NCBI GenBank assembly: GCA_018239895.1
Contig: JAFEGL010000029.1
Span: 64,574 to 128,573 of the forward strand
Reading direction: 5' to 3'
DNA: 64,000 nt
Origin: Verrucomicrobiota bacterium
Lineage (GTDB): Bacteria; Chlamydiota; Chlamydiia; Chlamydiales; SM23-39
Shown: piece by piece, positions 46,201 through 49,821 of the stretch
How positions within the stretch are numbered: the stretch's first letter is position 1
Layout: each line of letters begins with the position of its first letter
Program-made: the position numbers and the translations under genes
The notes under the pieces: model-generated
Database searches by the model: none
Told to the model about the DNA's origin: nothing
Seen by the model: only the letters and a program-made list of their open reading frames with translations

Positions 46201-48090
46201 TACACCTACAACTCGCTCAACCTCCCCAGCTCGCTCACTCGAGCCTTTGGAACAGCCGATGCGAGGACCTCCTCCTACACCTACACCCCCTCGGGGCGCC
46301 TCCTCACCCAGACGCAACCCGACGGGACTATTCTCAGCTACACCTACGACCCGTTTGGCTACCGAGAGTCGCTCCTCTCCTCCGACGGCACCATCTTCCA
46401 AACGTTCCGTTCGAACAAACTGGGACATCTCCTCTACGCCTCCGACAAGTCCCACATCCTCCAGCGGAAAGTCGACCGGTTCGGGAACATCCTTGAAGAG
46501 AGCATCGACGGGACCCTCACCCTAAAAAAGAGCTACGACGAAGTCGGCCATCTGACGACCCTCACTCTTCCCGACGGAAGTTCGATCGCCTACGAGTACA
46601 ATCCGCTCTACCTCTCTTCCGTCACTCGTCTCTCACCTCAAGGGGACGAGCTCTATTCTCACACCTACACCGACTACGATCTGATGGGATTGCCTCTCAA
46701 AGAGGTTCTCCCCATCAATGCCGGGACCATCACACACACCTACTATCCCGATGGCCGCGAGAAAAAGCTCCTCACTCCCTACCTCGTCCAAAACATCAGC
46801 TACGACGCCAAAGGGCGCGTCGCAAACATTTCGGGTGAAGGGGAGTTTTCTTACGACGAGCTATCGCAGCTTACCCAGGACCGCTCCACCCTGACCTACA
46901 GTTATGACGACCATTTCAACCGGGTCCAGGACAACGAGAACACCACTTCCTACAACCTTCTCGACCAGATCTCCGATCTACCATACGATCTCAACGGGAA
47001 CCTCGTTCACAAGAACGGCCTGACCTATAGCTACGACGCCCTCAACCGCCTCACATCTGTAGCCAGCGACGAGATGAACACCTCTTTCACCTACGATGCC
47101 CTGAACCGGTGCATCTCAAAGACCTCTAACAAAACCCAAGAGTTTTATCTCTATCACAACTCCGAAGAGCTCGGCTCATTCGCCCCCAACGGCGCGACCC
47201 TCAATCTCAAAGTCCCGGGCCTCTATCTCCGCCCCGTCGCCCTCGAGCTTGAGAACCAAACCGTTCTCCCGATCCTCGACTACCGCGGGAACATCCGCCG
47301 CCTCGTCTCGGACAACCAAACAATCCAGCAGTACGAGTACTCCGCCTTCGGCGAAGAGTACTCCTCAATGCCCCACGCCAACCCCTGGCGCTACTCCTCC
47401 AAGCGGTACCACCCCGAGATCATGCTCTACTCCTTCGGCCAGCGCTACTACGACCCAACCCTGGGCCGCTGGCTAACCCCTGACCCTGCCGGCTTCATCG
47501 ACGGAACGAATCTCTACGCCTATCTCCTAAACGACCCGCTCAACTCCCTAGATCCAAACGGAAATTTCGCCATCGCGATTCCTCTTGTTTGGTGGGGACT
47601 TGAGTTGGCCTTGCCTAGTCTTTACGCCTGCGTAGCTCCAATTGTTTACGGAGCTGTTACCGGCACGTTAGTCTACGGAGGTTACAAGCTGGTCGAATAC
47701 GCCAATGCTAACGGCATCGGATCTATGGGGGACTATTACACTGGAGACTTATCTCCTATTTCAAGTACACAAGACTATAGTTTCTGGAAAAATTATAGTA
47801 TCTATGCACCTGATAGACCTTTGCCTCGAGATCCAAGGACAAGAGAGCCGGTTCCTGAGACGGATGCTCCTCATACTGAACTGGGCACTAGAAATGGAGA
47901 AAAGGGACCATATCCTCAAGCTCGTGAATTTGATGCTCAAGGAAAACCTGTAAAAGATGTTGACTTTACCGATCATGGACGTCCAAAAAATCACCCTAAC
48001 CCACATGAGCATCAATGGAAACCTAATCCAACAGGCGGAACTCCTGAAAGATCTAATGAAGCCAAACCGTTATCAAACTATAGGAGATGA
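43261..48090 (+). CDS. Rhs/YD-repeat polymorphic toxin with Sec-type signal peptide and variable C-terminal toxin domain
   Basis: GGAGG Shine-Dalgarno precedes MKNWLCVLLAASAVIFA. There are dozens of YD repeats (YxYDxxGxL/R). The Rhs core ends with RYYDPTLGRWLTPDPAGFIDGTNLYAYLLNDPLNSLDPNGN (47551-47565). A hydrophobic linker and a His-rich tip follow. Confidence 0.9.
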   Translation: MKNWLCVLLAASAVIFADEKEPDLIASTPDQIASLSSEDLIGGVVSPLSGQVVIREIDLVAPGVQPIEIGRVYVPLGITAPSPVPPPEGGNQLDRYRWFSSHREYWAYVIANYRGWQHVPQRYVVIKDGKALITDQNGSVLEFKLKGGRYELTTPLYGIGSSSGEKDPRNIRISSEGEVYKVTYPDGLVRIYKASHINAYTLQKEILPNGKILRYTIDSSGIFIESLDPQERYVYATAKFDGKTQVTAGPDQAAFNYDATQNRKLRFKQKKGKKGKYNDLAPIEEEYDYPLPPILTRASTPNYRSEICDYTSFWQLSQYKGKDNWFMCAYDTGVSELSFPVGSDGSFETVYWISYNPPVAGQRGGSTQSIRADGVTTIYYFSQELLTTSVETYDPSGKLQMKKNYDWSSDHRLKMEEVLDGSGSLFYRKTYANYDPNGNPQLETFSGNLSGEGRLETWSVRREYSPENLLLKETDDEGKTTLFSYLPSTRLMTAKTILDGTQTVLQMTWTYDDCYNLIEETTSDATQKTITRYRLSQDPSTLHLPEWIETYYLDGTEKLLKKVKLAYDSRGHVAEEQIYDANGNFAWTIKHQYDEQGNLVSETNAMGDEALYAYTPEGKCSYSRNFSGRLEKKMTYDFAGRLEHMEEGKTRLTSFNYDPLNRCIEKTDYFGQTTNYTPDPVTGKTAKTQGPLAVVSSKTYDPLGREIQSIDPNGHITKTQYNAYGSPVTIHYPNGAIERFSYHRNGNLKSHTDREGTTTEYDYDILDRIISKTTWVEGEQIASETYTYSAFNLLSETDKEGNLTTYTYDKAGRKTSETAGVRVTNYFYDPMNRLIKTKNSQTTCQVEWDPLDRLLKERYLDKQGKVLSKIRYAYDKDGNQIAVYRYPQNEEKVETFEYDPFGRLIAHTDPLGNITTTYYDETGPTLTKITTDPLSLSTLITYDPYQRETHRQIGSTYREERTYDPAGNLLQIQEGDLITRYTYNSLNLPSSLTRAFGTADARTSSYTYTPSGRLLTQTQPDGTILSYTYDPFGYRESLLSSDGTIFQTFRSNKLGHLLYASDKSHILQRKVDRFGNILEESIDGTLTLKKSYDEVGHLTTLTLPDGSSIAYEYNPLYLSSVTRLSPQGDELYSHTYTDYDLMGLPLKEVLPINAGTITHTYYPDGREKKLLTPYLVQNISYDAKGRVANISGEGEFSYDELSQLTQDRSTLTYSYDDHFNRVQDNENTTSYNLLDQISDLPYDLNGNLVHKNGLTYSYDALNRLTSVASDEMNTSFTYDALNRCISKTSNKTQEFYLYHNSEELGSFAPNGATLNLKVPGLYLRPVALELENQTVLPILDYRGNIRRLVSDNQTIQQYEYSAFGEEYSSMPHANPWRYSSKRYHPEIMLYSFGQRYYDPTLGRWLTPDPAGFIDGTNLYAYLLNDPLNSLDPNGNFAIAIPLVWWGLELALPSLYACVAPIVYGAVTGTLVYGGYKLVEYANANGIGSMGDYYTGDLSPISSTQDYSFWKNYSIYAPDRPLPRDPRTREPVPETDAPHTELGTRNGEKGPYPQAREFDAQGKPVKDVDFTDHGRPKNHPNPHEHQWKPNPTGGTPERSNEAKPLSNYRR

Positions 48091-48569
48091 TGTTAATGTT
48101 TAAACCAACCTACTTAATCCGCTTAGATCGGAAGGTATTTTCTCAGGACCAGGTAGTGTGTTTAGGATCTCAGTTAAAATCTATTATTAACAGTCTTGAG
48201 AAATTAATAGAGCCCCATGTTTGGTTTATTGCAGATGTTGATGCTATCTCGCCTATTCCAGAAAAGCTAAGTATTAATTCACCTAAATTAAAAAAAATAG
48301 GAAATGATCGTTCCATTATAAATGTGTGTGAACATATAGATCAGTTCTTGTCAGGTATTTTTATTGCTATAAAAAGGGAAAATCAGGATTTCAAATGTTC
48401 AGAATTATCCGTCAGAACAGAGGATGAGCAATTTCGATCTTTAAATCTAGAAGGAATTTTAATTGAAATTAGGGCGTTTGATACATCGTATTTCGAAGTG
48501 TATTCTGATAATCATAATTTAATGGAAGTTTTGTCAAAGATTTACAAGGTTAGTTGTCATGAATTGTGA
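48087..48569 (+). CDS. candidate cognate immunity protein (family shared with 49366 ORF)
   Basis: The start overlaps the Rhs stop (ATGATG/TGA). AT-rich, 160 aa. Motifs W-F-x-D-V and IEI..FD.SYFEVY are shared with the ORF at 49366. Confidence 0.55.
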   Translation: MMLMFKPTYLIRLDRKVFSQDQVVCLGSQLKSIINSLEKLIEPHVWFIADVDAISPIPEKLSINSPKLKKIGNDRSIINVCEHIDQFLSGIFIAIKRENQDFKCSELSVRTEDEQFRSLNLEGILIEIRAFDTSYFEVYSDNHNLMEVLSKIYKVSCHEL

Positions 48570-48729
48570 TTTTAAGTTTGATTTGCCGAACATAGCTCAA
48601 TTTGATTCATATTTTCATGATGGATTCGTGCTTTCAATCATTCACAATGTGGATGAAATAGTATTTGGGCTTCAAAGTGTTGAAATTGATCCACAAGACA
48701 TATCAGAGAAAAATGAAAAGACTTCATAA
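48559..48729 (+). CDS. small ORF (56 aa), possibly the N-terminal piece of a frameshifted immunity-like gene
   Basis: Hand translation: MNCDFKFDLPNIAQFDSYFHDGFVLSIIHNVDEIVFGLQSVEIDPQDISEKNEKTS. Overlaps the preceding ORF by 11 nt and the following ORF by 17 nt at an A-rich tract. Confidence 0.3.
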   Translation: MNCDFKFDLPNIAQFDSYFHDGFVLSIIHNVDEIVFGLQSVEIDPQDISEKNEKTS

Positions 48730-49363: not shown

Positions 49364-49365
49364 GA

Positions 49366-49821
49366 ATGGTCGTTGACGGCATTAGAATTTTAGATATTGA
49401 AGAGGGAAAGTGTATTCCTCTGTCTGAGATACTGGAGAGCATTCCCAATCCGGAACAGTATGGCTGGGCGTTGCTATGGTTCGATGTCAACTCTCTGACA
49501 GGATACGGAGAGCATCTGTGGAAATTCCGTGAAACTGGACAAAATGGACTGATTGTTGACTTTGGTCAACTCATTGAGCTTTCATGTAAGATCTTTCAGG
49601 AGATTGATGTGCTTTTGATCGGATGTAGAAATAAAGCGTGCTTGCACCGTTACAAAAGTGATCGAGAGATGTATGAAACCTGCGATGTTGTGATAGAGAT
49701 GATCGATGGTGGGTTTTGGGAAATCTTTGGGAAAGATACAAGGTGGATCGATCAACTCTCGAAGAAATATCAAAGAATTGAGTTTTTAAAATCTGATTTT
49801 CAAGAGCATCTCTATTTATGA
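49366..49821 (+). CDS. candidate (orphan) immunity protein, same family as 48087 ORF
   Basis: 151 aa. WALLWFDVNSL and VVIEMIDGGFWEIFGKD align with HVWFIADVDAI and ILIEIRAFDTSYFEVYSDN of the first ORF. Confidence 0.5.
   Translation: MVVDGIRILDIEEGKCIPLSEILESIPNPEQYGWALLWFDVNSLTGYGEHLWKFRETGQNGLIVDFGQLIELSCKIFQEIDVLLIGCRNKACLHRYKSDREMYETCDVVIEMIDGGFWEIFGKDTRWIDQLSKKYQRIEFLKSDFQEHLYL

Follow-up and report, generated by a model that had tools for sequence, protein, structure and literature searches.

Why should a single toxin gene in a chlamydia-like genome be followed by a row of four small genes? We addressed this question for a stretch of 64,000 nucleotides (nt) of contig JAFEGL010000029.1, from a member of the Chlamydiales; this whole stretch is referred to here as the window. 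It carries a gene for an Rhs polymorphic toxin and, downstream of it, four co-directional, AT-rich open reading frames (ORFs), ORF1 to ORF4, with a GC content of 31-41% versus 51% for the window. An initial annotation had described the four as an array chained by overlaps or a 2-nt gap and made up of cognate and orphan immunity candidates, and the coordinates agree with the chain (Table 1). The region corresponds to the variable 3′ part of an Rhs toxin locus. Our findings indicate that this locus very probably combines the cognate antidote of the resident toxin (ORF1) with a broken gene (ORF2) and two orphan immunity genes (ORF3 and ORF4) for toxins that are not carried here.

The strongest evidence came from the pairing of ORF1 with the C-terminal toxin domain, or tip, of the Rhs protein. 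We fetched and mapped 22 genome loci with relatives of ORF1 and 42 metagenome loci with relatives of ORF4 (cited below by handles such as L001). The tip-ORF1 pair was found in 13 loci from at least five phyla, with the ORF1 homologue 5-30 nt downstream of the toxin-domain homologue, and spans Chlamydiota, Verrucomicrobia, Paenibacillus, Myxococcales and Alphaproteobacteria. An ORF1 homologue stands directly after the toxin domain in L001, L003, L005, L006, L009, L015, L016, L018, L019, L020, L034 and L040. The settings of the pair are diverse: L001, L005 and L006 have full-length Rhs genes, L015 and L016 have HINT-domain toxins of Paenibacillus, L019 has a Myxococcales protein of 821 aa, and L020 is an Alphaproteobacteria contig. 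Orphan modules consisting of a tip fragment and an ORF1-type gene occur in L003, L018, L034 and L040. In L001, L005 and L006, the tips are 75-76% identical to the window toxin domain and the ORF1 homologues 62-75% identical to window ORF1, whereas the Rhs bodies reach only 36-45% and the linkers between core and tip, despite the common toxin domain, 16-24%. Because toxin domain and ORF1 are both conserved while Rhs bodies and linkers diverge, the two appear to travel as a cassette. Such a pattern is what comparative analysis typically shows for a cognate toxin-immunity pair, and it supports ORF1 as the cognate immunity gene among the candidates of the initial annotation. In the producer and its siblings, its product would bind to the toxin domain and block it. 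Two further ORF1 homologues have housekeeping genes as neighbours and no toxin in the vicinity (L014:9980-10468, from Chloroflexia, and L011:9887-10414, from Candidatus Sacchlamyda); they are apparently orphan immunity genes located away from any Rhs locus.

Three of the four ORFs are real genes. The families of ORF1 and ORF4 comprise 112 and 82 homologue clusters, respectively, nearly all full length and with invariant residues, and the ORF3 family comprises 49 full-length clusters with an invariant YDGEGYIFWE motif. Most members of these three families are found on chlamydia-like metagenome contigs. An ORF1-family profile retrieved 465 representative clusters at 50% identity from 1.84 billion proteins, and AlphaFold modelled ORF1 and ORF4 with confidence (predicted local distance difference test scores of 93.6 and 87.5). 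That the ORFs are non-coding AT-rich noise is an idea to which the foreign composition, the weak Shine-Dalgarno sequences upstream of ORF2-ORF4 and the lack of any NCBIfam match, or any Pfam match above threshold, for the four ORFs might lend some weight. Conservation refutes it for ORF1, ORF3 and ORF4, and with ORF2 alone degenerate we give it practically no credence for the array.

The toxin domain resembles Ntox24 (PF15529), a predicted metal-independent endoribonuclease (endoRNase) family that has Imm50 and Imm53 as immunity proteins and has already been reported from chlamydiae and as part of RHS proteins (Zhang et al., 2012; PMC3482391). Eighteen of 26 tip-family members matched the Ntox24 profile at E<0.1 (best E = 4.5e-6; the L005 tip scored 23.3 bits), and the window tip covers profile positions 7-79 of 91. 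In an alignment of the 26 sequences, Y46, H33, H67, H73 and H77 are invariant and H79 nearly so; the conserved Y, H and H residues described for Ntox24 (Zhang et al., 2012) are present in the tip family. A PDB sequence search with the tip profile yielded no solved structure related in sequence; Tse15 (PDB 8uxt, E = 0.02) was rejected as a relative because its match falls on RHS repeats. The toxin motif YPQAREFDxxGxPVxDIDF (window 47900-47980) itself resembles a YD/RHS repeat, and the tip profile also weakly matches a repeat in the window's own Rhs body (residues ~982-999). This likeness may be due to chance, or it may hint at an all-beta toxin derived from a YD hairpin.

The rest of the Rhs protein follows the usual plan. 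It matches RHS_repeat with E = 1.9e-68 in 12 stretches and the Rhs-associated core model TIGR03696 (Rhs_assc_core) with E = 1.2e-17, the core ending in ...DPNGN. We propose that the protein consists of a self-cleaving core, then a hydrophobic linker, then the Ntox24-like domain of ~104 aa, a putative RNase. Ntox24 versions occur in toxin-antitoxin systems too (Zhang et al., 2012), and the tip and ORF1 might instead form a mainly intracellular module akin to a type II toxin-antitoxin system, with ORF2-ORF4 as unrelated passengers. However, the Rhs protein to which the toxin domain belongs is complete, at 1609 aa, and begins with a signal-peptide-like sequence, and the genes downstream come from families that are partnered with other Rhs tips, as is characteristic of a polymorphic toxin locus. 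RHS elements reportedly function as toxin-antitoxin modules in Salmonella, according to the title of one paper (PMC7043789); for the present locus we regard such a role as very improbable.

Comparison of the Rhs proteins further indicated where the cassette begins. The core end of the window protein is 41-62% identical to those of many loci. The linker that follows is conserved (45-74% identity) in Rhs proteins with unrelated tips, namely tipX, a tip type described below, in L010 and L034, and Ntox37 in L067. Identity is 45-52% for the linkers of tipX Rhs proteins and ~63% for that of L067. The variable tip is swapped independently of the body, as in L003 and L004, which have similar Rhs bodies and unrelated tips. 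The linker seems to be a module in its own right, perhaps one for membrane entry, with the cassette junction immediately 3′ of it. Located right after the DPxG core end, it resembles two transmembrane helices.

The initial annotation had taken ORF1 and ORF4 for divergent members of one family by eye, and profile methods agree. Pairwise BLASTP between the two is weak (E = 0.008 over 27 aa). Comparison of the family profiles by hhalign gave E = 2.2e-5 over 120 columns at ~19% identity and aligned exactly the three blocks that had been matched by eye; the ORF3 family, used as a control, was below 1% probability against both families. Reciprocal searches with hidden Markov models (HMMs) at E<1e-3 were concordant: the ORF4-family HMM matched 88 of the 112 ORF1-family proteins, the ORF1-family HMM matched 76 of the 82 ORF4-family proteins (19-25 bits), and the ORF3-family HMM matched none in either. 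Among the six-frame ORFs of the window, the second-best match of the ORF1 HMM was ORF4 and vice versa, and the AlphaFold models of the two proteins have strands and helices in the same order. We conclude from these profile comparisons that ORF1 and ORF4 are distant homologues. ORF3 was rejected as a further relative.

The annotation's suggestion of a DUF2691-like protein proved apt for ORF4: 35 of 44 ORF4-family members matched DUF2691 (PF10903), with a best E of 2e-5, and some ORF4 relatives hold a precomputed Pfam assignment to it. The ORF1 family is nearly invisible to this model, with one of 51 members matched. Neither family matched Imm50 or Imm53 in Pfam at E<=0.1 (44 ORF4-family and 51 ORF1-family members). 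An immunity role for DUF2691 is given neither in its Pfam description ("Protein of unknown function") nor in the single paper found to mention the family. PDB sequence searches with ORF1 and ORF4 returned no real relative; TBP and eIF4E, weakly listed by Foldseek for the two models, were not treated as evidence.

If two homologous immunity genes lie behind one tip, which of them is its partner? ORF4 relatives also directly follow the same toxin family, in 26 loci whose tips are 52-77% identical to the window tip. The tips of the two groups differ at one position, the variable residue that separates the two histidines of the NPHxH motif. Where an ORF1-type gene lies downstream, this residue is E or D in 12 of 13 tips and Q in one (L020); where an ORF4-type gene lies downstream, it is Q in all 26 and E or D in none. 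Given that the locus sets for this count were gathered via the immunity genes and not via the tips, the association was not built in by sampling. In L007 the tip reads NPHFH and precedes an unrelated 214-aa gene, which fits a role for this position. Since the window tip reads NPHEH, ORF1 is its expected partner and ORF4 an orphan aimed at the Q variant. A second candidate specificity position, PV-K/R-D, held on 27 full-length tips and failed on the larger set, where R occurs in 4 of 13 ORF1-type tips.

The same data bear on the notion that ORF1 and ORF4 both neutralise the resident toxin, redundantly or in cooperation, so that ORF4 would not be an orphan at all. The families are homologous and paired with the same toxin family, their adjacency recurs in L010, L027 and L040, and one ORF4-type tip, in L032, shares up to 77% identity with the window tip. 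Most loci, however, have just one of the two genes behind the tip, the NPHxH residue tracks the class, and the two families share no more than the low identity given above, so we consider a double partnership improbable. The orphan status claimed for ORF4 thus held in one respect, its expected partner being a Q-type tip and not the window's PHEH tip, but not in another, as that partner is a variant of the same toxin family and not a different toxin.

Taken together, these results suggest an unannotated immunity superfamily, comprising ORF1, ORF4 and DUF2691, that acts against Ntox24-like toxins, with the class set largely by the NPHxH residue (E or D for ORF1, Q for ORF4, and F in L007 for the unrelated 214-aa gene). 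We put this forward tentatively, as a possible rather than a probable scheme. Several results weigh against our reading of the locus as a whole. The window tip scored 20.5 bits against Ntox24 (E = 5.9e-4), below the gathering score of 24, and window ORF4 scored 14.4 bits against DUF2691 (E = 0.037), below the gathering score of 25. The hhalign probability for ORF1 and ORF4 families was 76%, short of 95%. Foldseek searches of the PDB with the ORF1 and ORF4 models gave nothing significant (best E of 0.07 and 0.12, respectively; template modelling score <=0.3), so their folds do not independently tie them to any known immunity protein. Fisher's exact test for the association of residue and immunity class (p = 3e-9) ignores shared ancestry, and L020 is an exception to it. 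Finally, the tip tree does not split the immunity types cleanly. Because this tree, which is short, is poorly resolved and the window clade nests among ORF4-type tips, we offer one-residue specificity as a hypothesis.

The partner of ORF3 appears to be a different toxin. In L003, L042, L067/L068 and L073/L074, relatives of ORF3 are found immediately behind Ntox37 tips; the Ntox37 scores were 28.7 bits in L042 (gathering score 27.8) and 26.8 bits in L003. L067/L068 has a full Rhs gene with an Ntox37 tip and an ORF3-like gene, then an Ntox37 fragment and a closer ORF3 homologue, while L073/L074 has an Rhs fragment with an Ntox37 tip and then an ORF3 homologue. P0196 is the closest relative, and its gene overlaps the end of the gene for a 1504-aa Rhs protein at the stop codon. 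No Ntox37 domain was found in the window. Because its relatives pair with Ntox37 tips and the window is without Ntox37, ORF3 is best read as an intact orphan. Forty-four ORF3-family members had no Pfam match to Imm32 at E<=0.1 and no other consistent Pfam match.

ORF2, in contrast to the other three, is a fragment, which modifies the picture of a four-gene array: ORF1, ORF3 and ORF4 are intact, but ORF2 is truncated. Its alignment to a family of 129-139 aa, with full-length members at L010:6148-6561, L034:6185-6586, 6719-7138 and 9328-9735, and L057:8507-8896, is confined to the ~45 N-terminal residues, and the remainder of the family sequence is absent from the window in every frame; for these reasons we regard ORF2 as a truncated remnant. 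Full-length members follow a third tip type, which we named tipX and which has no Pfam match; tipX was tried as a distant relative of Ntox24 and rejected, as HMM comparison gave no signal. ORF2 would then be the dead stub of an immunity gene against a tipX-type toxin. With Ntox37 as the partner type for ORF3, tipX for ORF2 and a Q-type tip for ORF4, and none of the three in the window, the proposal that the array holds orphan immunity genes is borne out. ORF3 and ORF4 plausibly shield the cell from the toxins of its neighbours.

Chimeric ORFs that resemble recombination scars were observed at three related loci. At L010:8114-8764, a C-terminal tipX fragment runs on in the same frame into the C-terminal half of an ORF2-family protein. 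At L008:4550-5182, an ORF2-family C-terminus is joined with the final residues of an Ntox24-like tip, and an ORF1 homologue comes immediately afterwards. At L003:10449-10664, a C-terminal ORF2-family fragment comes right after an ORF1 homologue, the mirror image of the N-terminal fragment in the window.

How was the array assembled? The Rhs body has a GC content of ~53%, positions 48000-49400 one of 31-35% and ORF4 one of ~41%. GC content at third codon positions (GC3) in ORF4 (0.43) differs both from that of the upstream block from toxin domain to ORF3 (0.28; p = 9e-4) and from that of the Rhs body (p = 3e-9). Because GC3 is 0.22-0.27 within the block and higher in ORF4, we favour the insertion of one block upstream of an older ORF4. 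The array would have been built by cassette exchange, and the simplest reading is that one low-GC block (toxin domain, ORF1, truncated ORF2 and ORF3) replaced an earlier tip. Similar mixtures of these families are also found in the arrays of L010, L034, L040, L061, L069 and L071.

The initial annotation had gone further and proposed serial tip replacement that left orphans behind. The orphan genes are present, but tblastn and HMM searches found no second tip, core-end or Ntox37 fragment in the window, and this part of the proposal is a matter of inference. The same absence of tip fragments between the genes agrees with an island of several immunity genes acquired en bloc by horizontal transfer, in which no other tips were ever present and ORF2-ORF4 serve solely to defend the cell from foreign toxins. 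Arrays that consist of these families and have no toxin next to them (L071, L065 and L010:8790-9824) and the lower GC content of the whole of 47776-49821 relative to the host also agree with it. On the other hand, the GC3 difference between ORF4 and the block argues for at least two sources or ages, and relatives show displacement intermediates, in which a tip fragment is followed by an immunity gene (L003:9777-10474, L061 and L067:5864-6642). We therefore judge en-bloc acquisition unlikely, though a serious contender. It is compatible with displacement, and both lead to the same present-day function.

Table 1. Coordinates and GC3 of features at the Rhs locus of the window.
Feature	Position	Strand	GC3	Remarks
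Rhs polymorphic toxin gene	43261..48090	+	0.67 (Rhs body)	recorded gene call, 1609 aa; RHS repeats, Rhs-associated core, signal-peptide-like N-terminus
Rhs core end, to DPxG motif	47305..47565	+		conserved whatever the tip; TIGR03696 match
Hydrophobic linker, FAIAIPLVWWGLELALPSLYACVAPIVYGAVTGTLVYGGYKLVE...	47566..47775	+	0.49	between Rhs core and toxin domain
Ntox24-like toxin domain	47776..48087	+	0.22	~104 aa; motifs HTxLG, YPQAREFD, DFTDHG, NPHEH
ORF1, cognate immunity gene (predicted)	48096..48569	+	0.27	157 aa; other ATGs at 48087 and 48090
ORF2, truncated N-terminal immunity remnant	48559..48729	+	0.25	56 aa; 11-nt overlap with ORF1
ORF3, intact orphan immunity gene (predicted)	48713..49363	+	0.27	216 aa; ATG 48713; 17-nt overlap with ORF2
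ORF4, intact orphan immunity gene (predicted)	49366..49821	+	0.43	151 aa; 2-nt gap after ORF3; DUF2691-like
Tandem GC-rich hairpins	49824-49856 + 49858-49905	.		between convergent ORF4 and kdsB

The gene starts deserve comment. The longest Rhs ORF begins upstream of the recorded call (43165-48090, 1641 codons). The longest form of ORF1 (48087-48569, 160 aa) has an ATG that does overlap the Rhs TGA (48088-48090), as the initial annotation had it. The ATG at 48096 is the more likely start, however, because it agrees with gene call P0083 (157 aa), yields the family consensus MFxPKYLI and has AGGAG 9 nt before it.

The island (~43165-49905, + strand) sits between pyrG (41460-43136, - strand) and kdsB (49998-50789, - strand). 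The hairpins at its 3′ end, one with a perfect 15-bp stem and the other with a ~20-bp stem, are host-like rather than island-like in composition and have a combined minimum free energy of -75.5 kcal/mol (z = -7.7 versus shuffles). They likely mark the end of the island and, if the array is expressed as we suppose, of its transcription unit. No T-run follows them and a simple terminator scan made no call there; across the locus, simple scans for promoter and terminator signals gave background level only. In Chlamydia trachomatis, kdsB and pyrG are presumably adjacent and co-transcribed, which neither the literature nor the fetched loci confirmed; if so, the island may split an ancestral kdsB-pyrG operon.

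Further families were seen in related arrays. One unnamed family (…FFNFLDLFWP…GDxGLTFYQ) recurs in Rhs-linked arrays at L001:10643-11179, L004:10509-10943, L010:9842-10390, L034:8869-9318 and L013:7450-7800 and 10490-11233; it probably represents one more immunity family, and the window has no member of it. A domain of ~80 aa (…W.D.V.IK..AP..F.PGE..SVCG…EW.YTVEF.DGS..E.PE.YL) occurs, with tandem copies, at L013:7854-8653 and 9761-10471, L004:9739-9975, L007:10635-10880 and L008:4550-5182. In L013 an ORF1 homologue carries it as an N-terminal fusion, in a protein of 236 aa, and in L004 it lies directly after a different Rhs tip. Two or three diverged copies of the ORF4 or ORF1 family (~35-40% identical) stand behind a single tip at L047:8878-9938, L048:9114-10579, L051, L028, L008:5170-6231 and L013, and these tandem copies appear to be homogeneous poly-immunity arrays.

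The locus can be compared with known systems. The closest are Rhs or YD-repeat loci with cognate and orphan immunity genes, for which related work includes Poole et al. (2011; PMC3150448), Koskiniemi et al. (2014; PMC3967940) and Hagan et al. (2023; PMC10539506). Like these, the window has an Rhs shell, a DPxG-ended core, a variable C-terminal toxin with an immunity gene immediately downstream, extra partnerless immunity genes and a foreign composition that begins at the tip. Unlike them, it has a chlamydia-like host, a Sec-type N-terminus and immunity families that are unnamed; neither a PAAR nor a VgrG context was seen around the gene, and orphan tip fragments are absent. As in Ntox24 toxins, the window tip, which aligns with the profile below its gathering score, keeps the conserved Y and several H residues, but its partners are DUF2691-like and not Imm50 or Imm53 by Pfam scan, and their superfamily is not listed for Ntox24. 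The resemblance to DUF2691 likewise holds for most of the ORF4 family but not, at gathering score, for window ORF4, nor for the ORF1 family. Ntox37 (PF15535) has Imm32 as its immunity protein, and both are listed in chlamydiae (Zhang et al., 2012). ORF3 relatives agree with such systems in lying directly after Ntox37 tips of Rhs proteins in chlamydia-like contigs, whereas the ORF3 family is without an Imm32 match and the window has the immunity gene without an Ntox37 toxin.

In conceptual terms, the locus fits the established model of Rhs loci that carry orphan immunity genes without extending it, and what is new is modest: a candidate DUF2691-like immunity superfamily for Ntox24-like toxins, the partner assignments for ORF3 and ORF2, and a candidate one-residue switch, all of them drawn from sequence comparison. 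Our findings nonetheless provide a functional reading, predicted immunity to Ntox24-like toxins, for a hypothetical family of at least 465 representative clusters and, by extension, for DUF2691, and they assign partner toxins to two unnamed families, that of ORF3 with Ntox37 and that of ORF2 with tipX. They also document active exchange of toxin-immunity cassettes in chlamydia-like bacteria, a group in which conflict among bacteria or directed at a host is difficult to investigate. The E/D-versus-Q switch in NPHxH offers a simple hypothesis of specificity; if it is true, one substitution beside the presumed active site could move a toxin from one immunity class to the other.

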